64,000 nucleotides of DNA from an uncultured bacterium (GTDB taxonomy: Bacteria > Patescibacteriota > Patescibacteriia > CAIQCM01): contig OY970181.1 in NCBI GenBank assembly GCA_963708045.1, forward strand, positions 131,740 through 195,739, read 5' to 3'. This document shows, piece after piece, positions 4,091 through 22,760 of the stretch. Under the pieces are notes generated by a model that worked only from the letters and a program-made list of their open reading frames with translations, had not been told where the DNA came from and did not search any database. Position numbers and translations under genes: made by a program. Numbering within the stretch: position 1 is the stretch's first letter; every line of letters begins with the position of its first letter.

Positions 4091-4208
4091 GAAGCCGTAG
4101 CTCAATGGTGGAGCAACACGTTTCTGGAGGCGTATGCTTCCAAGGTCAGTAACCAAAAGTTATTGATCTGATTCGTGAAGGTTGTAGGTTCAACTCCTAT
4201 CGGCTTCG
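4091..4208 (+). tRNA. tRNA with about 45-nt insertion in anticodon loop (candidate anticodon UCU, Arg)
   Basis: Perfect 7-bp acceptor GAAGCCG/CGGCTTC, D-arm GCTC-AATGGTG-GAGC, T-arm GTAGG-TTCAACT-CCTAT. Anticodon stem ACACG...CGTGA encloses a 52-nt loop that begins TTTCTGG and holds two internal hairpins. Confidence 0.6.
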
Positions 4209-4328: not shown

Positions 4329-4461
4329 GAGGCAGTAGCTCAATTTGGTAGAGCGCCGGAATGTCACATTAAACCAAACTTTTGTAACGTTGGTCACGAG
4401 ATAGTGGGTTCAAGGTTTGTTTTAATGCCGGAGGTTACAGGTCCGACTCCTGTCTGCTTCA
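4329..4461 (+). tRNA. tRNA with about 59-nt insertion in anticodon loop (candidate anticodon GUC, Asp)
   Basis: Acceptor GAGGCAG/CTGCTTC (one G-U pair), D-arm GCTC-AATTTGGTA-GAGC, T-arm ACAGG-TCCGACT-CCTGT. Anticodon stem CCGG(A)...(G)CCGG encloses a 66-nt loop that begins ATGTCAC, close to the E. coli tRNA-Asp loop CTGTCAC. Confidence 0.55.
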
Positions 4462-8287: not shown

Positions 8288-8675
8288 AAAATCAGCTATT
8301 TTTACCATCCTAAATGATAGTAACACCAAACGCCTGTTTTTTCAATTTATCCACAGTACCTCCCCACCCCTTATGGCTATTGACGGATTATTCTAAATCG
8401 TTTATTATTGCCACATACTAATCACAACTTCTTTTCGCTTGTTTTTAGAAGAAAAAAGAGTTGAACCTAAAATCGCTTGGTTCCACTCTTTTTTCTTCCT
8501 GAAACGTTTTGGGAAGGGACATTGACAACTCAATCGTGAACCAAAAATTTCTTTCTTTGAAAGAAGAGAGAGATCCCCGGATAATAAACATTCAAAAACA
8601 ATATAGTCATTAAACACATAAGTCTGATGACTCTGGTTGAGTCCACTTCTCCTTAGGGAGATAGGGATTTCTTCT

Positions 8676-10179
<1,504 letters not shown>

Positions 10180-10420: not shown

Positions 10421-10894
10421 ATGCACATAAAAACGCCGAGATATTTAGGGGAACAACTACGTTCTGACCGCAAACGCCAAGGAATGACGCAAGGCGAGTT
10501 GGCCGACGAATTGAATGCGAAACCCAATCGCCCGCAGAATCCTTTTACCCACCAACCCTATAATTTCAATAGGAGCTGGGTGGCCAAGCTTGAATCAGGC
10601 ACACTAGTTCGCGAACTTAATGTGGGGGTGCGGCGGTATCTTGCCGAAGTACTAAATGCAAACGAAGTCCTTTACGTACAACTTCCCACGCATGCAACTT
10701 CAGAATCGCAGAAGGTTATCACCGACGATGACAATGTCTTACCCCTGATCAAACTCATCGCCGCTCAGCCCAAACTAGCCCACCTTTCCTTCAAGAAATT
10801 TTGCGAGCTACGCTATGCGGACAACGTCTGCTCAAGAAGCGGGATATCAATTTTCAATCCGTTTGAGACCGAGACTGATCCACTGAGCAAGTAA
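10421..10894 (+). CDS. XRE-family helix-turn-helix transcriptional regulator
   Basis: N-terminal LRSDRKRQGMTQGELADELNA...VAKLESG is a Cro/C1-type HTH. C-terminal domain unknown. Confidence 0.55.
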   Translation: MHIKTPRYLGEQLRSDRKRQGMTQGELADELNAKPNRPQNPFTHQPYNFNRSWVAKLESGTLVRELNVGVRRYLAEVLNANEVLYVQLPTHATSESQKVITDDDNVLPLIKLIAAQPKLAHLSFKKFCELRYADNVCSRSGISIFNPFETETDPLSK

Positions 10895-11087: not shown

Positions 11088-11984
11088 TTATAGATGCGAT
11101 TTTTTACGACGAACGATAAATAATTTTGCTGCGGACAAAAGACCGATAAAGGGTAAGAAAACAAGCAGGCTTCTCATTGGCCACTTGGCGTAAGGATCGG
11201 TTGGTAGTTGCGGCGATAACTTTTCAACTCTAATATTACCGGCATTGTCCACGGCCTTAACCCAAACATGGTTTGATAATTTTTGATCTTTAAGTCGATA
11301 TGGGCTCGTCGCAGTAAGCCACGCGTCGGCCTTGGTTACTCCGTCACGCGTCTCTTGAACTTCGTAATAATCAATGCCCGAATCTTTGTCTTGAGTGCTA
11401 AAAACTAAAAAATATGCGCCATTAAAAAGATCCGGCGATGAAGAAATAACGGGTTTAAATTCTTCTGGCGTAACAGAATCCGCTTTTGTTGAATCGGGCA
11501 ACTGGTTTACGTCCGAACCAAAAGATATAAAAGACCATTCCGCAACTTTGGTTTTGGCCACAGTTGCTTTTCCATCGCTTAGAAGCGCGACCGGTTGTTC
11601 AAGCGTTACCTTTCCCGAGCCTGTTGCTTTTGGCAAAAAAACGATTGAAAAAATCTGACCGCGACTACCTTTAAACCCACCTGGAACAATGCCGGCAAAA
11701 TCAATGCGGTTATTTTCAATCTTTGGTATTTTAGCCCAGAAATTAACAAGTGAGTTGCTGTCATTCAGAAACTTAGCTTCTAGTAAATCATCCGGCCACA
11801 CGACAGCGCCGGAAACAGCGTTTAAAACATTGCCGTCAGCATTAAGTTCAAACGACAAAGTAAACGGACGGCCTTTTTCTATTCTGTCTCTTGTCTGAAA
11901 AGAAAAAGACGCTGCTCTAACCGCAGAGAGTGGTAAGAGCAGGGCAGAACAAACGATTACAATAATGTAAAATATTTTTTTCAT
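11088..11984 (-). CDS. hypothetical secreted protein with C-terminal membrane anchor
   Basis: Signal peptide MKKIFYIIVIVCSALLLPLSAVRA. C-terminal hydrophobic helix followed by RRKKSHL. Confidence 0.5.
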   Translation of the reverse strand: MKKIFYIIVIVCSALLLPLSAVRAASFSFQTRDRIEKGRPFTLSFELNADGNVLNAVSGAVVWPDDLLEAKFLNDSNSLVNFWAKIPKIENNRIDFAGIVPGGFKGSRGQIFSIVFLPKATGSGKVTLEQPVALLSDGKATVAKTKVAEWSFISFGSDVNQLPDSTKADSVTPEEFKPVISSSPDLFNGAYFLVFSTQDKDSGIDYYEVQETRDGVTKADAWLTATSPYRLKDQKLSNHVWVKAVDNAGNIRVEKLSPQLPTDPYAKWPMRSLLVFLPFIGLLSAAKLFIVRRKKSHL

Positions 11985-11987
11985 AAA

Positions 11988-13103
11988 TTAGCCTGTCCAA
12001 TAAAAGGCCATAATACTTAAATCTAATAAATCAACTTTGCCGTCGGCGTTAAGATCGGGCCCAGTTGGCGGGTTTGGGCGTCCGTACCAAAACGCAATAA
12101 CCGAGAAGTCAACCAAATTAATCCGCAGGTCGGCATTAAAATCGCCTTTGTCTTTAAGAATGGCTGACGGTTTTGTAACAATACTTTTATCGCTTACTTT
12201 GAATGTATGTGGATCGCTTAGAACACTAATGTCACCGCCGGAAAGAGCTTTGGTCTGCACAGTGTGATCACCCTTTAAAAGCGCATCGGTAGCCATCTTG
12301 TAAAGATAAACGCCGTCGGCGCTTGCTTTAACTTTAGTAACGAACGGATTATCAGAATTAACCGTGATTTCCACTTCGGCGCTCACTGCGGCTTGGCCAA
12401 AAATAATAATATTTTCTCCTTGCTTAACCTCGGACTTGTCCGTGCTCACGGTCGGCGGCAAAAAAATGCCACTAATCTGCGTCATTGACCCGGCGGTTGT
12501 ATAAATAGGAAAAGTGAATAATGTTGAACGCGCCCCTTGTTTGTCTTCGCCGTAAACGGAAAAAGTGTAATTACCCGACGAAAGACCGGTATATGTAATT
12601 GAAAATTTTGCATCCGACCCGGCAATGGTTGTTGCGGCTAATATTCCATCCTTAAGTAAACTAACTTTGCTTAGCGGATAGGCGCGGCCAGAAACAATCA
12701 CGCCGGTCGTAACGATTGTTAAAGGATACGTTGCGCTACCGCCTCCGCCACCACCGCCGCCTCCCCCTCCTCCACCACCACTGCTTGCAACACAACTTAA
12801 GGTATCAAAAGTACAATCGGCTTTGCAGGCCAACGTGCCGCCGCCGCCAAAACCGCGCGAACCGCAGGTCGCACCGAACAAATCAGTTCCATCACACTGT
12901 TCGTTAATTTCTTTTATTCCATTACCACAAAGATTAAGAATTTGAATTTGAAAATTTGCCGAACCAGCCGCTTTTGTTGTGAGCGGCTGAACTAAAAACA
13001 ATACCGCGCCAAAAACTAGCGCCGCCACGGTTGTGGCGGCAAACATTTTCGTAAACCCCTTTTGTAATCTAGTTTGCTCGTTCATTAAACTAAATGACGA
13101 CAC
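11988..13103 (-). CDS. secreted protein with Cys-rich N-domain, poly-Gly linker and C-terminal dockerin-like repeats
   Basis: TM/signal near N-terminus, G14 tract, and two D-x-N-x-D-G-x-V-D-L-L-D-like segments (DFNADLRINLVDFSVIAFW; DLNADGKVDLLDLSIMAFYW). Confidence 0.5.
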   Translation of the reverse strand: MSSFSLMNEQTRLQKGFTKMFAATTVAALVFGAVLFLVQPLTTKAAGSANFQIQILNLCGNGIKEINEQCDGTDLFGATCGSRGFGGGGTLACKADCTFDTLSCVASSGGGGGGGGGGGGGGSATYPLTIVTTGVIVSGRAYPLSKVSLLKDGILAATTIAGSDAKFSITYTGLSSGNYTFSVYGEDKQGARSTLFTFPIYTTAGSMTQISGIFLPPTVSTDKSEVKQGENIIIFGQAAVSAEVEITVNSDNPFVTKVKASADGVYLYKMATDALLKGDHTVQTKALSGGDISVLSDPHTFKVSDKSIVTKPSAILKDKGDFNADLRINLVDFSVIAFWYGRPNPPTGPDLNADGKVDLLDLSIMAFYWTG

Positions 13104-13107
13104 CGAT

Positions 13108-16100
13108 TTAATTAGCTGTAATTGAAAGCACCATATTAACGGAATAGCTACCCACTGGCTGTTCAGCCGGAATTTTCTGGCTAATAGCTACGTCCCTGAG
13201 TGTCCAGTCGCCAACATTATTTGCGGCAGCGGATGCCGAAAGTAAAGTAATATTATTGGTCACGCCTTCACTAAATGCCGCCGCCCCACCCTTAGAAATA
13301 TTTGCCGTCGTGCAACCACTGCACCCACCAACAGCCAAAGTCGCGACCGAAGGATCAATCGTCATCTGGCCACCGAGCGAATCAGTATCCCCGCCGTCGG
13401 CACACCCCGCACTCGTTGAATCGTTGAAATCATAATTTACTGTTCCACCATTCCAATAGTCCGTTGGCGCTTGCGCCGCAAGCGTTAATGTCCAACCGCC
13501 GGCAACACCAGTGTTGTTTACATAGATCTGCTCTGATGATGAACCAAAACTGCCGGTAACATTTTGACAAGAAAAATTAAAATTTGTTGAGCTCATCGCC
13601 ATACTCGGATTAGCGACCGGCGCATAGCTTGCATTAACAATGTCGGCGGTTAAAGAGCCGCCCGACGGATTTAATTCGTCATTGTCCGCGTTCATCGCTG
13701 ACTCAATATTCGCCCAGGATGTTTCAGCATTATGAACGTGCCAAAATGTGAAGCTAACCGTTTGACCCGGAGCGACCGAAGACCAGGTTTTTTCAAATCC
13801 GGTCTGGTCGGCTGTCTGAGTTCCGTGAGAAGCCGTTATTTGAATTGGCCACTCAGCATAAGGAGCGGTTGTCCTACCCAAAAACGCCTCGACGGCAAAT
13901 ATTTGGTAATCGGGGAGATTGTTCTTATCCCAAATCATTCCCATATTGATGAATGTCACCTTATCGTAAGCCGTTTGCCAAAATTTTGACCAGCCAGAAG
14001 GAGAAACCCTTTGCTCCATGATGACGTCGTTAGAAGGGTCGTTGGCAAATCTACCAGCATCATTTGCTGCCCTGTCTGTTCCGTGCCACTGTTCACGTTC
14101 CCAGACCATCGGATATTTATGAGTAGAGCTGCCACCATTATAAAAATCATATGTATTCTTTATATATCTTTTGCCAGAATAATAATTCTGTGTTCTTGTC
14201 GCTGTGATACCATTGTCCAACTGCTGAGCCCAACCTCCAACAACTCCACTAACTGCCGTATTATCGGAGTGCTGAACAATCGTAAAACCGGTATTGCTTT
14301 CGGCCGTTATCCAACTAGCATTTTCATTCGGACTCCACTTTATATCATGTTGATATGGATTAGCTGAGCCCGAAGTATCAGCTCTTATTATGTCATCAAC
14401 ATGAACAGCGACTCTTTCCATACAGTCGGTAGACTGGTCGGCTCCTCCGCCAACTGGGTGAGCCCGAGATTCGGCTTGTAAACCAGCTTGCTCACATTCA
14501 TTTATTGAAGAACAAGCTAAATTGTTATCGGTTGTTGAAGTTGGTTTTGGATAAATAAATGTAGATAAATACTGATTAGCAATATACAAACCATTTGAAC
14601 CCCAGCGCTGGCCCATGTCAAACGTTTGAGTCCAGTTATATCTTGTCGCAAAAAGGTCGGTATCGGTATCAAAAGCGATATCAACATCCGTTGAAACCGT
14701 TCCTGTAGTAGCCATCTGCGGGAGTGAAGCGAATTGAATGTAAAGCGTATGCGAGGAAGTCTCCCACCACCATGCGTTGACGCCAGTGGACTGAGCCGAC
14801 CCCGGAGAGACAGATGCCCCGTTTACGGTTATAGCAAAATTAGTCGGAGAAGAAGTGATCGGATGAATTGGAACCGCCACGGCAATATTCGTACCTGTTC
14901 CGCTTTTCATTCCAAACCCGAAATCGCTTATGGTTGTATGCCAGTGGTCAGTTGACCAGATAGAATTAAAATCCGTATAATTAGCCGGGTTTTGAACCGC
15001 GTCCATTGAAGTTCTTTTAACAGTCATCACAATAGTAAAGGTACTTGCGCTGCTCGTATAATCTATAGAAGGAAAACCAGCGTTATTATCCAACTGCACA
15101 ACAACACTAAAGGAACCGTTATAAGTCTTTGGGTCATCACAACCCATACAAATATTGGAACCGGGATAAATAACCCCTTCAAAACGACTATTGCCGGCGT
15201 TCCATGTCATCGGAGTAGAAAATCCTTGCCCAGCGATCGTGGTGACTTGGGCGCGGGCGTAAGGATAATTAGCATAGGTCAAACCGCCGGTTAGTGTGCC
15301 GTAAACTGGAACCGCCCCCGCCCATCCGTCGGTCGTTTTGCCCAAAGAACTGGCGATGCCGGGTACCACGGGAGCCGGATTTAGAGCAACGGCAAAAGCA
15401 TGCTTGACTGTGGTACCGGTCGTTGAGCAGGTCGTATCAATATTTCCGGTCGCACCCGAACCAGTCCACGTCATACTATCAATCGTCCTTGCAAAATCGG
15501 AAGCAGTTATCCAGTAATCGTTATGCTCAACCCAATCAGTGGTAGGAACTGATGGTTTTGTAAAGTTACGAGTTGTATTACTTGAATAGAAGCTAGCGAA
15601 ATTTAAAAGCACCGAACCAGCGGCCGATACGTTCATACTGGCCGCCCTAACCGTTGTATTACTGGTAATATATTCGGTATTTGAATAAGTATCTATGGGG
15701 TTTGCGGTGTTAAAACCCCCACGGAAAGTTGCAACGGTTATGGCCGTACTTCCAGAAGAAGCAAAACTCCAAGTGTAAGAAGCCCCTTCTCCCGAAGCCA
15801 ATTTCCAATAAAGCATTTGATGATAGGTTGTAGAATACTGGTGCTGGGCCAACAAAGTCCACCCGGTTGGAACCGAATCAACCGCTCCGTTATTGTTGCG
15901 CATAATCAAAGTAAACATGATATCGTTGTTCGCCGTATTGGTCGGTTTGTTAACCACGGCGTTGAACGGGGTGGTTTGGGATGCGGCATTATAGTGAGCA
16001 ACGTTTATAAAAGAGGTTGCCGCCATAGCCTCATGAATTCTTAATTCTTCCGGCAAGTTGCGCAAAGAAGAAAAATTATCAACAACGTTCGGATCATTTT

Positions 16101-16251
16101 CATTTTGAGCAAGCCATAATTTATCAACGATGTTACGTGTGTTAATGTAGGAATCTATCGCCGAAGAAAACAAATAATAAGGAACATTGGAAAAAATGAC
16201 CCCGAAAATGACCAGCGACACCACTAAAAATTTAAGAATTCTTGTTTTCAT
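13108..16251 (-). CDS. large S/T/N-rich cell-surface protein with WxL-like C-terminal domain
   Basis: Signal peptide. C-terminal about 190 aa are homologous to the whole of ORF 18474-19154 and carry two W-T-L motifs (GGWTLTLAAQAP; GDWTLRDVAISQ). Confidence 0.6.
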   Translation of the reverse strand: MKTRILKFLVVSLVIFGVIFSNVPYYLFSSAIDSYINTRNIVDKLWLAQNENDPNVVDNFSSLRNLPEELRIHEAMAATSFINVAHYNAASQTTPFNAVVNKPTNTANNDIMFTLIMRNNNGAVDSVPTGWTLLAQHQYSTTYHQMLYWKLASGEGASYTWSFASSGSTAITVATFRGGFNTANPIDTYSNTEYITSNTTVRAASMNVSAAGSVLLNFASFYSSNTTRNFTKPSVPTTDWVEHNDYWITASDFARTIDSMTWTGSGATGNIDTTCSTTGTTVKHAFAVALNPAPVVPGIASSLGKTTDGWAGAVPVYGTLTGGLTYANYPYARAQVTTIAGQGFSTPMTWNAGNSRFEGVIYPGSNICMGCDDPKTYNGSFSVVVQLDNNAGFPSIDYTSSASTFTIVMTVKRTSMDAVQNPANYTDFNSIWSTDHWHTTISDFGFGMKSGTGTNIAVAVPIHPITSSPTNFAITVNGASVSPGSAQSTGVNAWWWETSSHTLYIQFASLPQMATTGTVSTDVDIAFDTDTDLFATRYNWTQTFDMGQRWGSNGLYIANQYLSTFIYPKPTSTTDNNLACSSINECEQAGLQAESRAHPVGGGADQSTDCMERVAVHVDDIIRADTSGSANPYQHDIKWSPNENASWITAESNTGFTIVQHSDNTAVSGVVGGWAQQLDNGITATRTQNYYSGKRYIKNTYDFYNGGSSTHKYPMVWEREQWHGTDRAANDAGRFANDPSNDVIMEQRVSPSGWSKFWQTAYDKVTFINMGMIWDKNNLPDYQIFAVEAFLGRTTAPYAEWPIQITASHGTQTADQTGFEKTWSSVAPGQTVSFTFWHVHNAETSWANIESAMNADNDELNPSGGSLTADIVNASYAPVANPSMAMSSTNFNFSCQNVTGSFGSSSEQIYVNNTGVAGGWTLTLAAQAPTDYWNGGTVNYDFNDSTSAGCADGGDTDSLGGQMTIDPSVATLAVGGCSGCTTANISKGGAAAFSEGVTNNITLLSASAAANNVGDWTLRDVAISQKIPAEQPVGSYSVNMVLSITAN

Positions 16252-16270
16252 TTCTTGTTTTCACGCTTAA

Positions 16271-17254
16271 TTATTTTTCGCGATATTCGCTTATATAATC
16301 AAGAGCCTGTTTAGATATTTTTTTCATTACTTCTTCTGCTCGTTCTTGGCTATAACCTTTGACCATAACCGTCAAAATATACGGCCTTTTTGGCAAGTAA
16401 ACAATGCCCGAGTCTAAATATATTCCCTTGTCAGTATCAATTCCGATTTTATGCGAGAATAAAATATCATTTAGCATCCCACTTTTGATATATTGGCCGA
16501 ATTCGGTTTCCGAAAGATATCCCAATAATTTTTGCGAGTTTTCTTCCGACAAATATGTTGAATTATAAAGCGCTCTAAATATAGCAGAATATCTTTTTGT
16601 ACCAATTTCTCCGGTATTGGAAATAAAATCCTTGAGTCCAATGTGTGTGTAAACATCTTCAATATCTTTAACTTCAAGATTTCTGGTCAAAATAAAATTT
16701 GCCGTATTGTCGGACTCCGTCAAATCTAACTTAACTAGATCTTCAATGGTAAACGTTGAGCCAATTGGTTCTTTGTATAAATTCCCAAACTTTTCATCTT
16801 TGTCGTTGGCTGTCAGCACTAAGCGATTATCCCATTTCCACTCCCCGCGTTCTATTTTTTTTGTGACTGCCATAGTCACGGGCACTTTAAGGAGACTAGC
16901 CGGCCAAAATTTCATATCATTATTGATTGAAATATTGGCGCCGGTATTCAGATATTCAAAATAAACAGACACTCCATCTTTTCCCTCTAACTTGTTTAGT
17001 TCGTCCCTGAGCGGTTGGATATTGATTATAAGATCATCTTGATTGATAAGTTTCCGGGCGGGATTAAGCAATTTATATTCCCCAACGATATCCGCGACGC
17101 GACCATTTTTTCCGACGACACTTAAAAAAACAGGCGCTAGGAGCGAGGTAATTAAAACCGCCGCAAGCGTTGATATATAAACCCATTTTACGTCTACGTT
17201 TTTTCTATTTTGAATTTTTTGCTTCCAATTCATATTTTTGTTAGCGACTGACAA
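16271..17254 (-). CDS. serine hydrolase of the class-A beta-lactamase / penicillin-binding fold
   Basis: N-terminal TM, then SxxK (ASLLK), SDN (ESDNTAN) and KxG-like (HKIG) motifs. Confidence 0.55.
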   Translation of the reverse strand: MSVANKNMNWKQKIQNRKNVDVKWVYISTLAAVLITSLLAPVFLSVVGKNGRVADIVGEYKLLNPARKLINQDDLIINIQPLRDELNKLEGKDGVSVYFEYLNTGANISINNDMKFWPASLLKVPVTMAVTKKIERGEWKWDNRLVLTANDKDEKFGNLYKEPIGSTFTIEDLVKLDLTESDNTANFILTRNLEVKDIEDVYTHIGLKDFISNTGEIGTKRYSAIFRALYNSTYLSEENSQKLLGYLSETEFGQYIKSGMLNDILFSHKIGIDTDKGIYLDSGIVYLPKRPYILTVMVKGYSQERAEEVMKKISKQALDYISEYREK

Positions 17255-17323
17255 AAAGCAAAAACCCGAAAAAAATCCGGGTTTTTGCGGAACAAAAAAG
17301 TTGAGAAAAATTTCTTAAGACCA

Positions 17324-18463
17324 CTATCGCAAAGGCGGAGTTTTAATTTTTTCACCAGGTTTGACAACATAGGGAGGTTTTAATCCGTTCACCTTAGCAA
17401 GCAGTTTCCAAGAAATAGCGAATCGCTTTGCCAGGGAATTAATATCATCTCCTGCCCCAACCACCTGCTCTACCCATTTTTCCTGAATCCATTTTTTATT
17501 GCGACGATTTTTAACGCAGAGAATGACGACGGCAACCAAAAGCAAGACGACCGCGATTTCTGTTGCCAGGCCGCCCGGGGTTGGCGCGCTCCAAAACCAA
17601 ATTGTCGGGCCAGTAAGCGTTGTTAAATCTTTGCCGCTTTGCACACCAACGCTAGCTTCTGAATTTTTGTCGTAGTCAACAACAAAAGCCGAGCGATACC
17701 ATCCACCAAAGAATGGTTTTTTTATCTCAAAGTTCCAATCAGACGTTTCGCCGCGCATTATTGGAAACTGACCGCCGTACTGTTTATACGGCAAGCCGAA
17801 AAAATACGAAACAGCGACTTTGATATTGGCGTCAATGGAAACATTGCCAGTGTTCTTAACTTGCGGATGAAGGACAGGAACGCCTTTTTCTAAAGTTAAT
17901 GTAAAGCCAGCCAATTCAAGCTTGCGAACAATTTCGCCTGGGATTGTAACGGCCACGCGCAAACCCGTTCGTACCGAAAGAAGCGCACCAACTTGTCCCG
18001 CTTGTTTTACTTTTTTCTCTTGAATATTTATACAACCATCGTGCTCGCCAACCGCCGCGCTTTTGGGCGCGCTGATTGTAAAAGGCACGACTTCGCTCGT
18101 ACCCGGCTCTAGCATTACTTCGCTCTTTGCCAAATTGATCCAGGCGCCAATGTCCAGTTTGTCTTCGGAAAATTGCTTACAAGCAAAAGCGCCGCCGGTT
18201 GAAGGCGTAGAGTCGGTCGCATAAACCATTAAGGTCTTTGTTTCGGCCGAATTATTAACAACAACCACTCCTTCGCTAACCTTAGCGCCCGGTTCCAGAG
18301 TTTGGATAAAAATTGATTCGGTTCGCGGATTATCAGTCCGCGGATATGCCGGACGCCCGCCAAAACCACCATATTCAATGGCTTTGGCCGCGGACAACGG
18401 AATCACGACTGACGATAAAAATACAACGACTGTAATTAGTCTTGCGATTCCTAAAAATTTCAT
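17324..18463 (-). CDS. cell-surface protein (DUF916/DUF3324-like architecture) with TM anchor and C-terminal LysM motif
   Basis: Signal peptide, large ectodomain, TM helix EIAVVLLLVAVVILCV, then GAGDDINSLAKRFAISWKLLAKVNGL...VKPGEKIKTP, which matches the LysM consensus. Confidence 0.5.
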   Translation of the reverse strand: MKFLGIARLITVVVFLSSVVIPLSAAKAIEYGGFGGRPAYPRTDNPRTESIFIQTLEPGAKVSEGVVVVNNSAETKTLMVYATDSTPSTGGAFACKQFSEDKLDIGAWINLAKSEVMLEPGTSEVVPFTISAPKSAAVGEHDGCINIQEKKVKQAGQVGALLSVRTGLRVAVTIPGEIVRKLELAGFTLTLEKGVPVLHPQVKNTGNVSIDANIKVAVSYFFGLPYKQYGGQFPIMRGETSDWNFEIKKPFFGGWYRSAFVVDYDKNSEASVGVQSGKDLTTLTGPTIWFWSAPTPGGLATEIAVVLLLVAVVILCVKNRRNKKWIQEKWVEQVVGAGDDINSLAKRFAISWKLLAKVNGLKPPYVVKPGEKIKTPPLR

Positions 18464-18473
18464 AGATATAACT

Positions 18474-19154
18474 TTAGCTGGCGGTGACGGAAAGAGTCAA
18501 GTTGAGATTGTAATCGCTAGCCGCCGGCTGTTCAGCGGGAATAGTTTGGCTAACCGTGACGCCAGAAAGCTTCCAGTCGCCAATATCATTAGAAGCCGCG
18601 GCGCCAGAGAGAATAGTGATACTATTCGTGGTTGTTTCAACAAAAGCCGAGGCCGATCCTTTGGTCACGCTCGTTATCGCACAAGAAGCACATTGACCAA
18701 CCGCCAACGTACCAACCGAAGGATCAATGCTCATCTGTCCTTTGAGGGTGTCGGTATCGGCGCCATCGGTACAACCAGCACCCGTCGGATCGTTAAAATC
18801 AAAATCAGTGCCGGCGCTATCCCAAAAAGCCGTTGGTGCCGAAGCAGCCAAAGTCACCGACCAACCACTGTCGGCGGCATCTGGATTTTTTACGTAAATC
18901 TGCTGAGTTGTAGTTCCCAAAGTTCCGGTTGAGCTTTGGCAAGAAAAACTAAACGTTTTCGCGGCCATCGCGACCGACGGACTCGCAACCGGCGCATAAG
19001 CGGCGTCAACAATATCAACCGACAAACTGCCGGCATTAATTGTCTGCGTAAAACTTGAGGTGGCGGAAGCTAAAACGTTTGCCCCGCTACCCAAGGCATT
19101 GGCCGCGACAAAGACGGCGACAAGGGCGATCTTTGCCCAATTATCTTTTTTCAT
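18474..19154 (-). CDS. WxL-like domain surface protein
   Basis: Signal peptide. Full-length homology to the C-terminus of 13108-16251. WxL-type motifs SGWSVTL and GDWKLSGVTV. Confidence 0.55.
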   Translation of the reverse strand: MKKDNWAKIALVAVFVAANALGSGANVLASATSSFTQTINAGSLSVDIVDAAYAPVASPSVAMAAKTFSFSCQSSTGTLGTTTQQIYVKNPDAADSGWSVTLAASAPTAFWDSAGTDFDFNDPTGAGCTDGADTDTLKGQMSIDPSVGTLAVGQCASCAITSVTKGSASAFVETTTNSITILSGAAASNDIGDWKLSGVTVSQTIPAEQPAASDYNLNLTLSVTAS

Positions 19155-19279: not shown

Positions 19280-19849
19280 TTAATTTTGCCAACTTGCTCC
19301 GCCCGGCGTCCAAACCGCCCAGCGATAAGCGCCACGAATTGTGGCACCCCACGGCGCAGGATCGGCAAAAGGATCGGTAAGCGACAGCGTTCCTTCTGGC
19401 GTACAGGCGGCAACTATTTTATAATCAATGCCATCAGATTTGTACGCGTAACAACTCCACGATGGCGCACTGGTGCATTCGCCACGAGCCGATGTTGGAT
19501 TAACTTTATTTTCATTTGGATCGTGCGGAAGAACAGCCAAATAAGTTGGCGCCAGATCGGGAATCCAACCACCCGAACCAGTGTCACTTTTTGCCGTCCA
19601 GTTTCCTCCTTCGTTGCATATTCCCCAAAAAGCCGAGCCCGTCAATGGGTACCCAGCATGATCCGCATAATATAACTCCAATGCCTTAGCAATTTGTATA
19701 AGATTAGCCTTGCGCTGAGTATTTCGCGCGTTCATTCTTACCGAACTCAAAGACACAACCGCAATCATAGAAAGCAGTCCAATAATCGCGATCACGACAA
19801 GGAGTTCAACTAGAGTAAAGGCGCGACGGGGCATGACGGATAACATCAA
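19280..19849 (-). CDS. type IV pilin-like protein
   Basis: MPRRAFTLVELLVVIAIIGLLSMIAVVSL prepilin N-terminus. About 185 aa. Confidence 0.75.
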   Translation of the reverse strand: MMLSVMPRRAFTLVELLVVIAIIGLLSMIAVVSLSSVRMNARNTQRKANLIQIAKALELYYADHAGYPLTGSAFWGICNEGGNWTAKSDTGSGGWIPDLAPTYLAVLPHDPNENKVNPTSARGECTSAPSWSCYAYKSDGIDYKIVAACTPEGTLSLTDPFADPAPWGATIRGAYRWAVWTPGGASWQN

Positions 19850-19853
19850 ATGA

Positions 19854-20654
19854 CTAATGTTGCGTGTCTAATGTCGACGACGAAGCAAGAATTTGCGAAT
19901 ACGAAGACGATTCTTCGGCGTAGATTTTTTTAATTTCAGAAGCAGTTAGTGAGCGGTTAAAGATTCTAACGCTATCTATAAGGCCGCTAAAAAATGTAGC
20001 TCCGGCATATATTCCTATGCCGGCGCCAGAATAATTGGCATTATTCAGAGCGGACACAGTCCCCGACCCTGCTAAACCTCCGTCCAAATATACTGAATAA
20101 GAAGTTCCACTTTGGTCAATGACCAGCTGGTGCCAAGCATTTGTGCTTACGCTCCTAGAAACCGTCCCCACCGAAAGATTAATGTCCGGGTACCACGAAA
20201 TCGCGATATTGCTCACGCGTATCAGCGTCGACCTGTACGAAAATATAGGACGAGTTGCGGCGTCTGCGGGCTTGAACCAAAGAGAATACACGAGCGACGA
20301 CGCGGTTGTGTTCACATACGGTATGCTCACATAAGCCGTTGAACCATTGAACGACAGCGAACAGCCCTTGCCGCTCGGAGTATCGGTTGACCACACTGCT
20401 GCTCCGCCGACCAAGGTTCCATTCAACCCATTCCCACTGGTATCATTTGCCGTCGTACCGGAACATTCATCAAAATCCCATTGCGCGAAAATATCATCAC
20501 CTACAACGTGTTGAACCGATTGCTCATAAGAGATACCTTTCGCAAGCCGCGCCTTTTCCCTAGCCGTTGTTAGCGAAACAACCGCGATTGAAGAGAGTAG
20601 CCCAATAATCGCGATCACAACAAGAAGTTCAATTAGGGTAAAAGCACGTTTCAT
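19854..20654 (-). CDS. type IV pilin-like protein with LamG-like domain
   Basis: MKRAFTLIELLVVIAIIGLLSSIAVVSLTTAREKARLA...IDSVRIFNRSLTASEIKKIY. Confidence 0.75.
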   Translation of the reverse strand: MKRAFTLIELLVVIAIIGLLSSIAVVSLTTAREKARLAKGISYEQSVQHVVGDDIFAQWDFDECSGTTANDTSGNGLNGTLVGGAAVWSTDTPSGKGCSLSFNGSTAYVSIPYVNTTASSLVYSLWFKPADAATRPIFSYRSTLIRVSNIAISWYPDINLSVGTVSRSVSTNAWHQLVIDQSGTSYSVYLDGGLAGSGTVSALNNANYSGAGIGIYAGATFFSGLIDSVRIFNRSLTASEIKKIYAEESSSYSQILASSSTLDTQH

Positions 20655-20672
20655 TAACTTTTTTAAAAAAAA

Positions 20673-21491
20673 TTATTTATTAACCGCTGTTAACTTGCCC
20701 GGAAGTTCGGCCAAATACATTTGCCTAACATCCATTGCAGTCAATGCGTTACCAAAAAAATGAACAGAGTCAATAAACCCGACAAGCCCTTGGCTAAGAT
20801 AGCCTATCGCCACAAACCCACTAGCATTTAAATCGTTGGCACTTAAGGCGCTTATATCCGCGGAACCGCGCAGTTTGCTATCCAAATAAACATTCATTAT
20901 GTTAGCGCTTCTGTCTATAGACAATGCCAAAAAATGCCATACGCCATCATTATATTTTCCAGATGCATAAGCAACAATGCCCGTATTATGCAATACGCAG
21001 TCCACTGTACCAGATGATATACTTCCAATTTCACACATCATTCCATTGGCGTTACCGGCGTCGGATTTTCGCAACATTACTCCACGATCAGTTTGTGAAG
21101 TTTTAAACCAAAAAGTTCTGGTCGCGTTGCCGGTGCGGACATCCAAACTGTCGTTATCTGAAATTCTGACATAGCCCGTGGCGGTTGAAGCAAGCGACGT
21201 TCCACTTCCGCTCGGAGTATCCGTTGACCAAGTTGGTCCACCAACCAAAGTGCCGCTGTTCCCGTAATTAGAAGAATCAACAGTGGCCGTGCCCGACCCT
21301 TCGTCCAAGTCCCATTGCCCAACCAATGAATCCCCCTCGGCGCGATCAATTTGCGCAGCAAATTGTTTTGCCGCCGCAAGCCGCGCCTTTTCCCTAGCCG
21401 TTGTTAGCGAAACAACCGCGATTGTTGAAAGCAATCCGATAACTGCGATTACGACAAGGAGTTCAATTAGGGTAAAGGCGCGACGGTTCAT
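20673..21491 (-). CDS. type IV pilin-like protein with LamG-like domain
   Basis: MNRRAFTLIELLVVIAVIGLLSTIAVVSLTTAREKARLAAA...IDSVHFFGNALTAMDVRQMY. Confidence 0.75.
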   Translation of the reverse strand: MNRRAFTLIELLVVIAVIGLLSTIAVVSLTTAREKARLAAAKQFAAQIDRAEGDSLVGQWDLDEGSGTATVDSSNYGNSGTLVGGPTWSTDTPSGSGTSLASTATGYVRISDNDSLDVRTGNATRTFWFKTSQTDRGVMLRKSDAGNANGMMCEIGSISSGTVDCVLHNTGIVAYASGKYNDGVWHFLALSIDRSANIMNVYLDSKLRGSADISALSANDLNASGFVAIGYLSQGLVGFIDSVHFFGNALTAMDVRQMYLAELPGKLTAVNK

Positions 21492-21630
21492 ATTGATACA
21501 GTATCATTTTTGTTATGGTATATAAAATTGGCGCTCTTCGATTTTAATAGAGTTATTTGAAGAGATTCAGCGTAAAATCACAATCAAATTTTTAGTGTCT
21601 AAAAATTTTTTTAAAACTAACTGTAATATA

Positions 21631-22089
21631 TTACGTCCCGTTCGGGGAAATACAATAATTATAAACCGCACCGCCTGAGCAACCAGAATAATCATAGGCG
21701 TTTCCGGTTGCTTTTTCCATATTTGCACATAGAATATAGCGCGTTTTATTATCTATATTCTGGTATAAATAATCACCAATTTGGTTATGTTGAGTCGGGT
21801 CTAACGGAGTACGAGCCAAAAACGATACAATGTCCGACTGAAAACCCGCCCCGAGACCGCCCGCGGGGTTGGAAATGAACGTGCACCAGCCGGCGGAGTT
21901 GCGGGGCAAATAACTGTTGACATCGGCAAATAACTCAATCGCCTGCGAAATTTGCCGCAGGTCGGCCATTCGCTTGGCATCGCGAGCTTTTACTCGCGAA
22001 GCACTCAAAGATACGACCGCGATTGTTGAAAGCAGTCCGATAATCGCGATTACGACCAGAAGTTCAATTAGGGTAAAAGCCTGTTTCAT
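21631..22089 (-). CDS. type IV pilin-like protein (small)
   Basis: MKQAFTLIELLVVIAIIGLLSTIAVVSL. 152 aa. Confidence 0.75.
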   Translation of the reverse strand: MKQAFTLIELLVVIAIIGLLSTIAVVSLSASRVKARDAKRMADLRQISQAIELFADVNSYLPRNSAGWCTFISNPAGGLGAGFQSDIVSFLARTPLDPTQHNQIGDYLYQNIDNKTRYILCANMEKATGNAYDYSGCSGGAVYNYCISPNGT

Positions 22090-22205
22090 TTTATAAATAT
22101 TAAATACACCAGTCGTGCAGATTGATTTTATTATATCACTATCCCCGCAATAAAACTCAAAAAAATCTCCTCATTTTGTTGAGGTTTCGCCTCGACAAAA
22201 ATCTG

Positions 22206-22760
22206 TTAATTTCCCTGATGATCAACGTAGAGCATTGGACTCCTCGCGGGCGGGACGGTCGGACTAAACGGGTCGCAAAAATAATAACTGCCGTCTAAAT
22301 AAACATTATCCCTATAACCGCGCGATGCGCATCGGTCCGGATCAGATGTGTTTTCCAAATTAGCGATCAAATCATACTTACTACCGGATGCATTACTATA
22401 GTAAGCATAAGTAAAATTTCCTTGAAATGTCGGATCCGTAATATTCTTATTTATCGGGTCAGCGGGCAGAACAGTAATATAGGTTTGAAGCATTGTTTGC
22501 AAACTTAACCACCGCGCATTAGAGCAGGTGTCCAAATCGGTCGTGGCGCTGCAGGCCCAAGGAGATGCTACAACGGGAAAATGACCATTGTCGTCATAAT
22601 AAAGATCCAGAGCGAGTTTTATTTGCCGTAAATCAGACTTCCTTTTCACATCACGTGCCGCTATCCTGCTTTTATCCATTACAACAACCGCAATCGTTGA
22701 AAGGAGGCCGATGATCGCGATCACGACTAAGAGTTCAATTAAGGTAAAAGCGCGCTTCAT
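22206..22760 (-). CDS. type IV pilin-like protein (small)
   Basis: MKRAFTLIELLVVIAIIGLLSTIAVVV. 184 aa. Upstream region paralogous to that of 21631-22089. Confidence 0.75.
   Translation of the reverse strand: MKRAFTLIELLVVIAIIGLLSTIAVVVMDKSRIAARDVKRKSDLRQIKLALDLYYDDNGHFPVVASPWACSATTDLDTCSNARWLSLQTMLQTYITVLPADPINKNITDPTFQGNFTYAYYSNASGSKYDLIANLENTSDPDRCASRGYRDNVYLDGSYYFCDPFSPTVPPARSPMLYVDHQGN

Follow-up and report, generated by a model that had tools for sequence, protein, structure and literature searches.

Does an ultra-small CPR (Patescibacteria) bacterium encode a version of the WxL/WxLIP (Csc) clusters of Lactobacillales and Bacillales (Siezen 2006; Hassan and Williamson, PMC9772566, PMC10599100)? 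The question is raised by one locus in a stretch of 64,000 nucleotides, called the window here, for which a preliminary description proposed such a cluster. The assignment of the host to CPR is very likely right: the named homologs all come from Patescibacteria MAGs, and the genome has 1.19 Mb.

The locus is a tight operon on the minus strand (window positions 11088-19154), counted as seven genes, six of them named here. The five ORFs initially recognized (11988-19154) are all present at their positions in one orientation, but the extent was drawn too short, since a 298-aa gene at 11088-11984 also belongs to the operon, as judged from the short gaps and the conserved synteny. The operon begins with the gene of the small protein, which is followed by those of the membrane anchor, the beta-lactamase-fold protein, the large protein of 1047 aa, p371 (dockerin protein), and p298 (cohesin-like membrane protein), with intergenic gaps of 10, 69, 19, 4, and 3 bp. 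The features are as follows.

18474..19154, minus strand: small protein, 226 aa, with signal peptide, N-terminal peptide STSxFTQTINA, and an all-beta WxL-like domain of ~185 aa (ORF)
17324..18463, minus strand: membrane anchor, 379 aa, with signal peptide, PGBD/DUF916, HBD-like Ig domain, TM helix, basic tail, and LysM (Pfam, HHalign, Foldseek)
18020..18349, minus strand: PGBD (DUF916) domain of the anchor, residues 39-148 (Pfam envelope; HHalign and PDB alignments)
17588..17938, minus strand: second Ig-like domain of the anchor (HBD/DUF3324-like), about residues 176-292 (Foldseek, global HHalign, AF2 strands)
17513..17572, minus strand: TM helix of the anchor, about residues 298-317, followed by the basic cluster KNRRNKK (hydropathy, AF2)
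17336..17464, minus strand: LysM domain C-terminal to the TM helix, residues 334-376 (PF01476)
17258..17288, minus strand: terminator-like hairpin (13-bp stem and T-run) between the anchor and beta-lactamase-fold genes, a pattern match from a consensus scan
16271..17254, minus strand: membrane-anchored class-A beta-lactamase-fold serine hydrolase (Pfam Beta-lactamase2, PF13354, E 4.6e-37)
13108..16251, minus strand: large protein, 1047 aa, with signal/anchor sequence, passenger of ~860 aa, and C-terminal WxL-like domain (ORF, database searches)
13111..13659, minus strand: C-terminal WxL-like domain of the large protein, residues 865-1047 (identity to the small protein)
11988..13103, minus strand: p371, with Cys-rich N-terminal region, Gly linker, Big_6 Ig-like domains, and C-terminal type I dockerin (Pfam, profiles)
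12009-12149, minus strand: type I dockerin of p371, residues 319-365 (Dockerin_1)
11088..11984, minus strand: p298, 298 aa, with signal peptide, weakly cohesin-like N-terminal domain, Ig-like domain, and C-terminal TM anchor (family profile)

In the same consensus scan, the total number of terminator-like sites in the region is not above chance.

The membrane anchor is a true full-length WxLIP homolog (DUF916/PGBD, DUF3324-like domain, and TM helix), in agreement with the layout first proposed for it. The Pfam scan recognizes WxLIP_PGBD (PF06030) at 29.5 bits, just above the cutoff of 27.3, and LysM (PF01476) at 33.2 bits, but not DUF3324 (PF11797), a domain covered instead by the Foldseek match to 9i1y and by the global HHalign alignment. 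The family profile matches EfmWxLIP1 in the PDB (E 3e-6). Against eight canonical WxLIP proteins, HHalign probabilities are 98% (local mode) and 99% (global mode), with E 2e-17 over 320 columns, and the global alignment spans signal peptide, PGBD, HBD, TM helix, and basic tail. The AF2 model (pLDDT 86; helix 296-329) has as best Foldseek matches the crystal structure of Enterococcus faecium WxLIP (9i1y_A) and the solved complex with long WxL (9i25_C), with both Ig-like domains aligned (E 1.7e-14, 275 columns), about six orders of magnitude ahead of the next-ranked matches. Identity to the E. faecium protein is 18% (~17-18% to Firmicutes WxLIP generally) and the rmsd of 6.5 Å probably reflects a different inter-domain angle. 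The canonical PGBD motif NQIDKxxxYFDLK is not conserved in the CPR anchor.

Unlike the WxLIP of Csc clusters, the CPR anchors have LysM, in one to three copies, C-terminal to the TM helix (found in 67/75 anchors, with three copies in L063, L064, and L067). Across the family, the helix has a mean Kyte–Doolittle hydropathy of 2.5-3.3, with a net charge of +1 to +5 (mostly +3 to +5) on its C-terminal side and of -1 to +2 (mostly 0) on its N-terminal side. By the positive-inside rule, the LysM is predicted to be cytoplasmic. Such a location fits no known WxL model and counts against a WxL-type reading.

The small and large proteins share their C-terminal domain. Residues 865-1047 of the large protein align with 42-226 of the small one (56% identity, E 3e-64); the match, first said to cover all 226 aa, is confined to the mature domain because the signal peptide and the 11-aa N-terminal peptide are excluded. 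Paired W-x-L motifs, attributed to both proteins, are literal in the large protein (WTL at 920 and at 1016) but not in the small one (WSV at 98, WKL at 194). The large protein is S/T-rich, as noted before (S+T 21.7%; 25.2% in the small protein). The small protein has at least 934 CPR homologs, without Pfam annotation. Its residues W98, W111, W194, and four Cys are invariant. Proteins with the shared domain make up a large family without annotation (681 clusters at 50% identity, with small and large architectures both represented), and the domain lies at the extreme C terminus in 153 of 153 complete occurrences. Upstream of it, the passenger region of the window's protein has no match in Pfam, NCBIfam, PHROGs, or the PDB, and a passenger HMM matched none of 79 related loci. 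The passengers of other large proteins are diverse and include an H-type lectin and PATR repeats.

Is this shared domain a WxL domain, as had been supposed? The evidence is divided. Of 48 family members, not one is matched by Pfam WxL (PF13731), at E values up to 10, HHalign probabilities against canonical WxL are 1.7%-10%, the CPR-domain HMM found nothing among canonical WxL proteins, and the family profile matched no PDB chain. In the alignment, the second canonical W is a Leu in CPR, W194 (formerly taken for a second WxL) faces the mid-domain GTW of canonical WxL and not motif 2, and the CPR domain has a Cys-rich, Asp-rich insertion absent from canonical WxL. These observations favor a view, unlikely in our estimate, in which kinship with the Firmicutes system is limited to the anchor; the shared domain would be a beta-domain specific to CPR and unrelated to WxL, recruited independently as client of a DUF916-type anchor. 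On the other hand, the deep-profile global HHalign alignment with WxL is collinear from end to end (149 columns, score 20.2, P 7e-4); the best of 40 block-shuffled profiles scores 10.2, the reversed profile 10.4, and four real beta-rich decoy families 0.4-2.5. Many CPR members score 12-13 bits with a custom HMM of canonical WxL. The failure of the Pfam model is not specific to CPR, since the model barely finds or misses genuine Firmicutes large-WxL domains. Finally, the two systems are identical in architecture (always C-terminal, with a small and a large version) and in how the genes are ordered around a proven WxLIP homolog. The weak collinear profile similarity, better than in all controls, suggests a relationship to WxL, although a WxL identity is not established.

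The Csc clusters have the same core trio: a small secreted single-domain protein, a DUF916+DUF3324+TM protein, and a large protein with the small protein's domain at its extreme C terminus, behind variable adhesin-like modules. The locus reproduces the csc-type logic initially proposed, and its small-anchor-large gene order is that of Listeria L003. In both systems, further surface-anchored proteins are encoded in the operon. In CPR, however, the small and large copies have a near-identical layout with the same spacing, whereas small and large WxL domains of Firmicutes differ in topology; the four invariant Cys and the acidic insertion also set the CPR domain apart. The cohesin/dockerin pair takes the place of the LPxTG partner of Csc, the beta-lactamase-fold gene is optional, and the host is a CPR bacterium instead of a gut Firmicute.

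We consider that the locus is a highly diverged CPR version of the WxL/WxLIP ("csc-type") cell-surface complex, with a probability of about 0.65. The exported anchor would be kept in the cell's own membrane by its C-terminal TM helix. Through beta-strand complementation, its PGBD would capture the beta-domain in which the small and the large protein both end, a binding mode seen in the solved E. faecium WxLIP–long WxL complex and in AlphaFold models of Firmicutes pairs; the likely donor is a conserved, poorly ordered hairpin at about residues 150-170. The large protein would thus be displayed with its highly variable passenger outward, where it would probably bind host cells or substrates in the manner of an adhesin or lectin, and the small protein would be a cargo-less partner or a platform subunit.

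The fold classes are in line with such strand complementation and also suggest another reading. The AF2 model of the small protein (all-beta, pLDDT 75) has no Foldseek match with E ≤ 0.001; the 50 best matches do not include the WxL chain of 9i25, which counts against a WxL identity of the shared domain. The weak top matches are the donor-strand-complemented subunits CsuA/B, CanA (cannulae), FimA, and SafA, and the second-tier matches of the anchor are the chaperones CfaA, PapD, Caf1M, and CsuC. In chaperone-usher pairs (PapD, Caf1M, CsuC with CsuA/B), a two-Ig-domain protein donates a strand that completes the incomplete beta-sandwich of its client. Further, the peptide STSxFTQTINA is highly conserved in small proteins only, with alternating hydrophobic residues, and unstructured in the model, and several loci contain two to four small-protein genes. 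The small protein might then polymerize through this peptide as donor strand into a fiber, a monoderm analogue of chaperone-usher pili, with the large protein as tip adhesin and the WxLIP-like protein as chaperone or membrane base. This we find distinctly unlikely: the fold matches of the small protein are all non-significant (E ≥ 0.026), the operon has no usher-like or polymerization machinery, and polymerization is unreported for canonical WxL systems. Among the differences from the chaperone-usher pairs are the lack of an outer membrane and the tethering of the CPR anchor to the membrane, the chaperones being soluble in the periplasm. A fiber overlaps with the CPR WxL/WxLIP complex and does not exclude it.

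The last two genes probably encode a second, independent tethering pair. In p371, Big_6 is recognized by Pfam (E 8.5e-8), and the dockerin, already proposed for this gene, is borne out at the family level: Dockerin_1 gives 22.5 bits in the window protein, just below the cutoff of 22.9, but matches 18 of 22 family members (best E 2e-9), and the family profile matches the solved dockerin 2y3n_B (E 8e-7). The p298 family profile matches the cellulosomal cohesins 5aoz and 5m2o (E 6e-4 and 2e-3), a weak assignment, with Pfam Cohesin matching 2/21 members. The genes are syntenic in 23 (p371) and 22 (p298) loci, a paralog of ~600 aa often following p298. As in the cohesin–dockerin pairs of cellulosomes, p298 is likely the (membrane) receptor for the p371 dockerin, although neither glycoside hydrolases nor a scaffoldin are present.

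The hydrolase at 16271-17254 is of the beta-lactamase fold, as described, with the motifs S120xxK, S181DN, and K257SG/K269IG. The ATG at 17233 is likely its true start; a 320-aa gene call for the protein exists in another assembly. It is an optional accessory that might serve in local peptidoglycan remodeling: 16 of 79 loci have it, and in all of these but L075 it stands between the anchor and the large protein.

Synteny is kept across more than 10 CPR lineages (~79 genomes at species level), among them UGA-recoded ones, in which all 21 in-frame stops are TGA. In 70/79 loci the anchor gene comes immediately after the small gene, and of the 51 loci whose downstream sequence reaches 6 kb or more, 44 have the small-anchor-large trio. 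The system is therefore ancient in CPR and not a recent transfer from Firmicutes, one of the origins first envisaged. A recent acquisition, or a cassette borne by a phage or mobile element, would recall the frequent location of Firmicutes WxL clusters on plasmids (113 plasmids carry WxLIP) and would fit the low, atypical GC of the beta-lactamase-fold gene (0.365). It is very improbable given the low identity to Firmicutes WxLIP, the radiation-wide synteny, and the host-like GC of the other operon genes (0.42-0.52, with 0.462 in the window); nothing relevant appears in PHROGs or in a viral fold search, and neither integrase nor transposase flanks the locus.

No paper in the literature searched describes this CPR system, in line with the earlier remark that such loci are not commonly described, but traces exist in two supplementary tables: orphan DUF916 matches in TM7x and Kazan, and a cluster in Southlakia epibionticum (Saccharibacteria; Wang et al. 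2023, PMC10633639), the one CPR organism in culture for which Tn-seq data exist. This cluster, SEML1_0625-0628, is listed in the supplementary tables only, without discussion in the text. It contains a large FN3/RCC1 protein, a 188-aa protein with a "WxL domain-containing protein" as best structural match, a 316-aa "DUF916" protein with PapD-like ECOD domains, and an LPXTG-like gene. The ECOD assignments of the DUF916/WxL-like pair are of the same fold class as the fold matches of the CPR locus; the anchor, compared by annotation, is shorter and without LysM. The four genes, possibly of a different subfamily, are all non-essential in Tn-seq, a point against the proposed reading of the CPR locus.

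For the CPR bacteria, the probable role of the operon is the surface display of adhesin-like proteins of high variability. If the shared domain were unrelated to WxL, the system would work like a WxL cluster without WxL domains.

A preliminary description had placed five surface-associated ORFs on one strand at 11988-19154, and all five are found there, on the minus strand, with their coordinates unchanged. The genes are tightly packed (intergenic gaps of 10, 69, 19, 4, and 3 bp) and, because a 298-aa gene at 11088-11984 continues this tight series, the real unit is 11088-19154, one gene longer than claimed. From its upstream end, the operon reads:

18474-19154, minus strand: small protein, 226 aa
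17324-18463, minus strand: anchor, 379 aa, WxLIP-like
16271-17254, minus strand: beta-lactamase-fold protein, 327 aa
13108-16251, minus strand: large protein, 1047 aa
11988-13103, minus strand: predicted dockerin protein (p371)
11088-11984, minus strand: weakly cohesin-like membrane protein, 298 aa (p298)

The anchor is a WxLIP homolog. A WxLIP is defined by a signal peptide, a PGBD (DUF916), an HBD (DUF3324), and a TM helix (PMC10599100). After its signal peptide, the anchor matches Pfam WxLIP_PGBD (PF06030, the renamed DUF916) with 29.5 bits for a cutoff of 27.3, and the DUF916 assignment made earlier passes that check. For PF11797 (DUF3324/HBD), on the other hand, Pfam sequence search gives no match in the anchor. 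The proposed DUF916/DUF3324 layout stands for DUF916 and the TM helix. The second Ig-like domain is a candidate HBD by profile and fold: it aligns with the HBD of 9i1y (the Enterococcus faecium WxLIP EfmWxLIP1 alone) in Foldseek (275 columns) and also in global HHalign. The anchor family profile matches EfmWxLIP1 in the PDB (9i1y, and 9i25 where it is in complex with a long WxL protein; E 3e-6). Against eight canonical WxLIPs from Firmicutes plasmids, HHalign gives 98% probability in local mode and 99% in global mode (E 2e-17, 320 columns), with the global alignment spanning the signal peptide, both domains, the TM helix, and the basic tail. The AF2 model of the anchor (pLDDT 86) has as its top Foldseek matches 9i1y_A and 9i25_C (E 1.7e-14, 275 columns, both Ig-like domains); the second tier consists of chaperone-usher chaperones (PapD-like), about six orders of magnitude weaker. 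An AF2 helix at residues 296-329 forms the single C-terminal TM helix, and the mean hydropathy of this segment is 2.5-3.3 across the anchor family. Identity to Firmicutes WxLIPs is ~17-18%. The canonical NQIDKxxxYFDLK motif is absent from the anchor; the aligned segment, R-x-DNPRTESIF-x-HTLEPG, differs from it and is conserved within the anchors of the Candidate Phyla Radiation (CPR). In some lineages the anchor exceeds this length by ~90 aa and has an insertion close to where PGBD and HBD meet (comparison loci L021, L044, L050, and L055 from other genomes), and the 476-aa DUF916 orphan of a Kazan bacterium (Hassan et al. 2023, Table S5) has the size of these longer anchors. Tandem duplications of the small + anchor pair also occur in some lineages (L022, L036, L045, and L057).

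Residues 334-376 of the anchor (17336-17464) form a LysM domain (PF01476; 33.2 bits, cutoff 20.9) that also matches LysM chains in the PDB, and the LysM check suggested for the locus is thus positive, in the anchor. A LysM follows the TM helix in 67/75 anchors, with three copies in L063, L064, and L067. The net charge after the TM helix is +1 to +5 (mostly +3 to +5) and before it -1 to +2 (mostly 0). Because basic charge follows the helix, the positive-inside rule would put the LysM tail in the cytoplasm, an atypical place for LysM. We know of no WxL model, and of no usual role of LysM, that accounts for a cytoplasmic LysM. A LysM domain after the TM helix is a new feature relative to the WxLIP definition.

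Residues 865-1047 of the large protein align with residues 42-226 of the small protein (56% identity, E 3e-64), and the shared unit is therefore a C-terminal domain of ~185 aa. The match of the last ~190 aa to the entire 226-aa protein, as first described, holds for this C-terminal region; in the small protein, neither the signal peptide nor the short peptide at the N-terminus is part of it. The family comprises at least 934 matches at 90% clustering and 681 clusters at 50% identity, and none of these matches carries a Pfam annotation. The domain occupies the very C-terminus in 153/153 complete occurrences. Carriers range from 107 to 1961 aa (the full-length ones from ~210 aa upward), the small proteins having ~210-260 aa and the large ones up to 1961 aa. 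A small architecture (domain only) and a large one (passenger plus domain) are the defining feature of WxL proteins (PMC9772566), and the CPR family shows exactly these two. The AF2 model of the small protein is all-beta (pLDDT 75). W98 and W194 do not vary among the family members. The paired W-x-L motifs claimed for both proteins are literal in the large protein (WTL920 and WTL1016); in the small protein they read WSV98 and WKL194, the first of which is not W-x-L. Residues 105-160 of the small protein correspond to a CPR-specific insertion, with the invariant cysteines C72, C128, C155, and C158 and an acidic stretch, DFDFND...GCxDGxDxD, of low pLDDT. This insertion could be a loop that disulfides stabilise or that binds Ca; canonical WxL domains are without it.

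Sequence searches do not assign this domain to WxL. Neither the small nor the large protein matches any Pfam model, WxL (PF13731) included, or has a WxL match in NCBIfam, contrary to the expectation of the preliminary description, and 0/48 family members match PF13731 (cutoff 25 bits), even at E <= 10. The same model recovers 6/6 canonical small WxL proteins and a Listeria large WxL protein at exactly 25.0 bits, and gives no match with an E. faecalis large WxL protein: it is insensitive to genuine divergent WxL domains. Sequence searches of the PDB return nothing relevant, whether the query is the small protein or the profile of its family. With the AF2 model of the small protein, Foldseek gives no significant PDB match, and the WxL chain of 9i25 is not in the top 50. 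Shallow alignments in HHalign give 19 non-significant columns around the first motif, so that deeper profiles are needed. These were built from 143 CPR domains and 126 canonical small WxL proteins.

HHalign global scores of the CPR domain profile and of the controls
CPR domain versus canonical WxL: 20.2 (149 columns end to end, P 7e-4, probability 10%)
40 block-shuffled templates: at most 10.2
Reversed profile: 10.4
Four real beta-rich decoy families: 0.4-2.5

Many CPR members score 12-13 bits with a custom HMM of canonical WxL proteins; in the opposite direction, a CPR HMM finds nothing among canonical WxL proteins. In the HHalign register, the CPR start GxLxVDIV corresponds to the canonical strand GxLxxDxV, and IYVxNPDAADxGWxV, with W98, to IxVxDxRGxxxGWxV, which is WxL motif 1. 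W194 falls on the canonical mid-domain GTW, and the Trp of canonical motif 2 on CPR Leu221. In the gene-cluster definition of Hassan et al. (2023), the operon has the layout of a WxL cluster, with one WxLIP, two proteins sharing the same C-terminal domain, and one gene between; the fit depends on accepting the shared domain as WxL.

A scan of species-representative genomes yields 79 loci, onto which HMMs of the window proteins were mapped. Their labels include Saccharibacteria, Levybacteria, Peribacteria/Peregrinibacteria, Gracilibacteria, Doudnabacteria, Kerfeldbacteria, Dojkabacteria, Microgenomates, Paceibacteria, Colwellbacteria, and Falkowbacteria. The anchor gene directly follows the small gene in 70/79 loci, and the trio of small, anchor, and large genes is present in 51/79; of the 51 loci whose downstream sequence reaches 6 kb or more, 44 have it. 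Small and anchor proteins are 50-77% identical across lineages, including L049, whose 16S rRNA is 78.7% identical to that of the window. For the passenger of the large protein, on the other hand, searches of Pfam, NCBIfam, PHROGs, the PDB, and the 79 loci turn up no relative; at other loci, some passengers contain recognisable modules (H-type lectin, PATR repeats, DUF7483, Ig-like) and others none. The picture is that of a conserved display module with fast-evolving cargo.

The hydrolase claim holds for the beta-lactamase-fold protein, which matches Beta-lactamase2 (PF13354, E 4.6e-37) and keeps the catalytic motifs SLLK120 (SxxK), SDN181, and KSG257/KIG269. It reaches 78 bits for an NCBIfam true beta-lactamase cutoff of 200 and, since it scores below the NCBIfam cutoffs, it is a member of the fold and not a demonstrated beta-lactamase. 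The gene occurs in 16/79 loci, between the anchor and the large protein in all except L075. It has 36.5% GC (window, 46%) and resembles an accessory insertion. A terminator-like hairpin (17288-17258, 13-bp stem) precedes it, so that transcription of the small and anchor genes may exceed that of the downstream genes.

The protein p371 contains a Big_6 match and, as judged from its family, a predicted dockerin. In the window protein, Dockerin_1 (PF00404) stays just below the Pfam cutoff (22.5 bits vs. 22.9); the assignment made earlier draws its support from the orthologs, with matches in 18/22 at E <= 0.01 (best 2.3e-9), and from the family profile, which matches PDB dockerins (E 8e-7). The N-terminal module of p298 weakly resembles cohesins, and the protein ends in a TM anchor. 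Pfam Cohesin (PF00963) has no match in the window p298 and matches 2/21 of its orthologs weakly (best E 5.6e-4); the p298 profile matches the PDB cohesins 5aoz (6e-4) and 5m2o (2e-3) over only ~55 residues. A cohesin-dockerin tether between p298 and p371 is a reasonable but tentative proposal. Orthologs of p371 are found in 23 loci and of p298 in 22, in the order of the window, and a ~600-aa p298 paralog is often next after the p298 ortholog.

The operon is immediately preceded, on its own (minus) strand, by five genes resembling those of type IV pilins (19280-22760, N_methyl motif); the genes at 19854-20654 and at 20673-21491 also carry Laminin_G_3/ConA-like lectin domains. This adjacency is not conserved elsewhere: a pilin gene lies less than 10 kb away in L049 only. 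Convergent to the operon end, there is a solitary bacterial 16S rRNA gene (8670-10177), with no 23S or 5S within the 64-kb window. The same lone-16S arrangement occurs in L049 (18190-19587), and the 78.7% identity between the two 16S genes comes with an apparent alignment gap near the 5′ end. The stretch that separates the operon from the 16S gene encodes a 157-aa protein on the plus strand (10421-10894); by eye, its N-terminal segment resembles an XRE-type helix-turn-helix. Rfam tRNA matches at 4091-4208 (118 nt) and 4329-4461 (133 nt), at neither of which ARAGORN makes a call, could be tRNA genes interrupted by an intron or in some other way.

Proteins identical to those of the window lie on a contig of 1.19 Mb. 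All named homologs come from Patescibacteria/CPR MAGs, which supports well, short of proof, the attribution of the locus to a CPR genome. Some contigs with the operon (TPA assemblies) carry other labels, "uncultured Gammaproteobacteria," "Ectothiorhodospiraceae," "Pseudomonadales," or "Christensenellaceae" (L019, L021, L026, L029, L044, L049-L051, L055, L057, L059, L070, and L079); these are probably taxonomic mislabels. In Gracilibacteria/Peribacteria loci, several ORFs look fragmented, and the in-frame stops are all TGA (21/21; L011, L012, L014, L020, L023, L027, L033, L039, L042, L048, and L076). Since TGA is expected in UGA-recoded lineages (genetic code 25), these genes are taken to be intact and not pseudogenes. 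Horizontal transfer from Firmicutes had been suggested as an origin. As a recent event, it is rejected on the conservation and synteny across CPR lineages, the ~17-18% WxLIP identity, the host-like GC of the operon (except for the beta-lactamase-fold gene), and the UGA-recoded carriers. A phage or mobile-element origin is rejected as well, as PHROGs and viral fold searches are without phage signal; the small-protein model has no significant Foldseek match among viral structures. Given the low Firmicutes identity, the host-like GC, and the lack of phage signal, the system is ancient within CPR rather than newly acquired.

We regard the homology of the anchor, the two architectures, the operon, and its conservation as shown, and beyond these we propose a mechanism of display. 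The membrane-tethered WxLIP would use strand complementation to capture the C-terminal domain of either protein, small or large; variable adhesin or lectin cargo would thereby be displayed, and the p298-p371 pair could act as a second tether. Several observations lead to this proposal. In Firmicutes pairs, AlphaFold predicts that a PGBD hairpin is inserted as a strand into the WxL sandwich (PMC10599100), and a WxLIP-long WxL complex is solved (9i25, among the Foldseek matches of the anchor). The counterpart hairpin of the anchor, at ~150-170, has several invariant positions yet low pLDDT (58-73), the pattern expected of a hairpin that orders on binding. Mature small proteins start with a conserved peptide, STSNFTQTINA, unstructured in the AF2 model and absent from the large proteins. 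Last, the weak, non-significant Foldseek neighbours of the small protein are donor-strand-complemented fibre subunits, the weaker neighbours of the anchor are PapD-like chaperones, and the DUF916/WxL-like pair of Southlakia has these same ECOD classes.

A fibre built by true strand exchange is a less favoured alternative. In a bolder reading, the operon would go beyond a diverged WxL cluster and encode a surface assembly based on strand exchange throughout the CPR. The small subunit would then use its conserved, disordered N-terminal peptide to polymerise or to cap large variable adhesins, a chaperone-like WxLIP would hold the assembly, and the conserved LysM tail, on the cytoplasmic side, would link it to the state of the cell-wall precursors. 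In another version, episymbiosis would bring the TM helix, together with the LysM tail, into the envelope of the host; Hassan et al. propose that the WxLIP TM helix goes into the host. We consider such an assembly improbable. If true, it would be a lineage-defining host-attachment organelle of Patescibacteria, and the WxL systems of Firmicutes would have branched off from an older machinery for display by strand complementation. Display by strand complementation on a membrane-tethered WxLIP is the reading we prefer.

WxL clusters are viewed as a speciality of Lactobacillales and Bacillales, with roles in gut adhesion and virulence. The locus had been presented as not commonly described in CPR, and in the searched literature we found no paper linking WxL or DUF916 with Patescibacteria or CPR; traces do occur in supplementary tables and annotations. 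A few CPR anchors are already named "DUF916 domain-containing protein" by NCBI. Table S5 of Hassan et al. (2023) has orphan DUF916 matches in TM7x and in a Kazan bacterium, without a WxL partner. In the structure-annotation supplement of Wang et al. (2023), SEML1_0626 of Southlakia is DUF916-like and SEML1_0627 WxL-like, beside a large FN3/RCC1 protein; the cluster is all non-essential in Tn-seq and the text of the paper is silent on it (PMC10633639). Two essential Southlakia proteins were rejected as orthologs of operon members, the dockerin protein SEML1_0315 (unrelated neighbourhood) and the LysM protein SEML1_0652 (LysM-LysM-CHAP). New here are the membership of the orphan CPR anchors in complete clusters conserved across the radiation, the large cryptic family that constitutes their client domain, and the features proper to CPR: the LysM tail, the Cys-rich acidic insertion, the predicted cohesin/dockerin pair, and the optional hydrolase.

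A complete, cryptic counterpart of the WxL cluster, with a recognisable WxLIP as anchor, is thus conserved across the CPR, and the "orphan DUF916" matches in CPR genomes are thereby explained. The shared-domain family merits a new Pfam entry or a clan link. To our knowledge, the attachment biology of episymbionts is largely unknown beyond type IV pili. Hundreds of large, variable "hypothetical" surface proteins of CPR receive a function hypothesis, that of cargo displayed via a conserved C-terminal module, and become candidate host-recognition factors for episymbionts. Saccharibacteria are now open to genetics, so that the display hypothesis is directly testable. The origin of WxL-type display would move deep into monoderm evolution.
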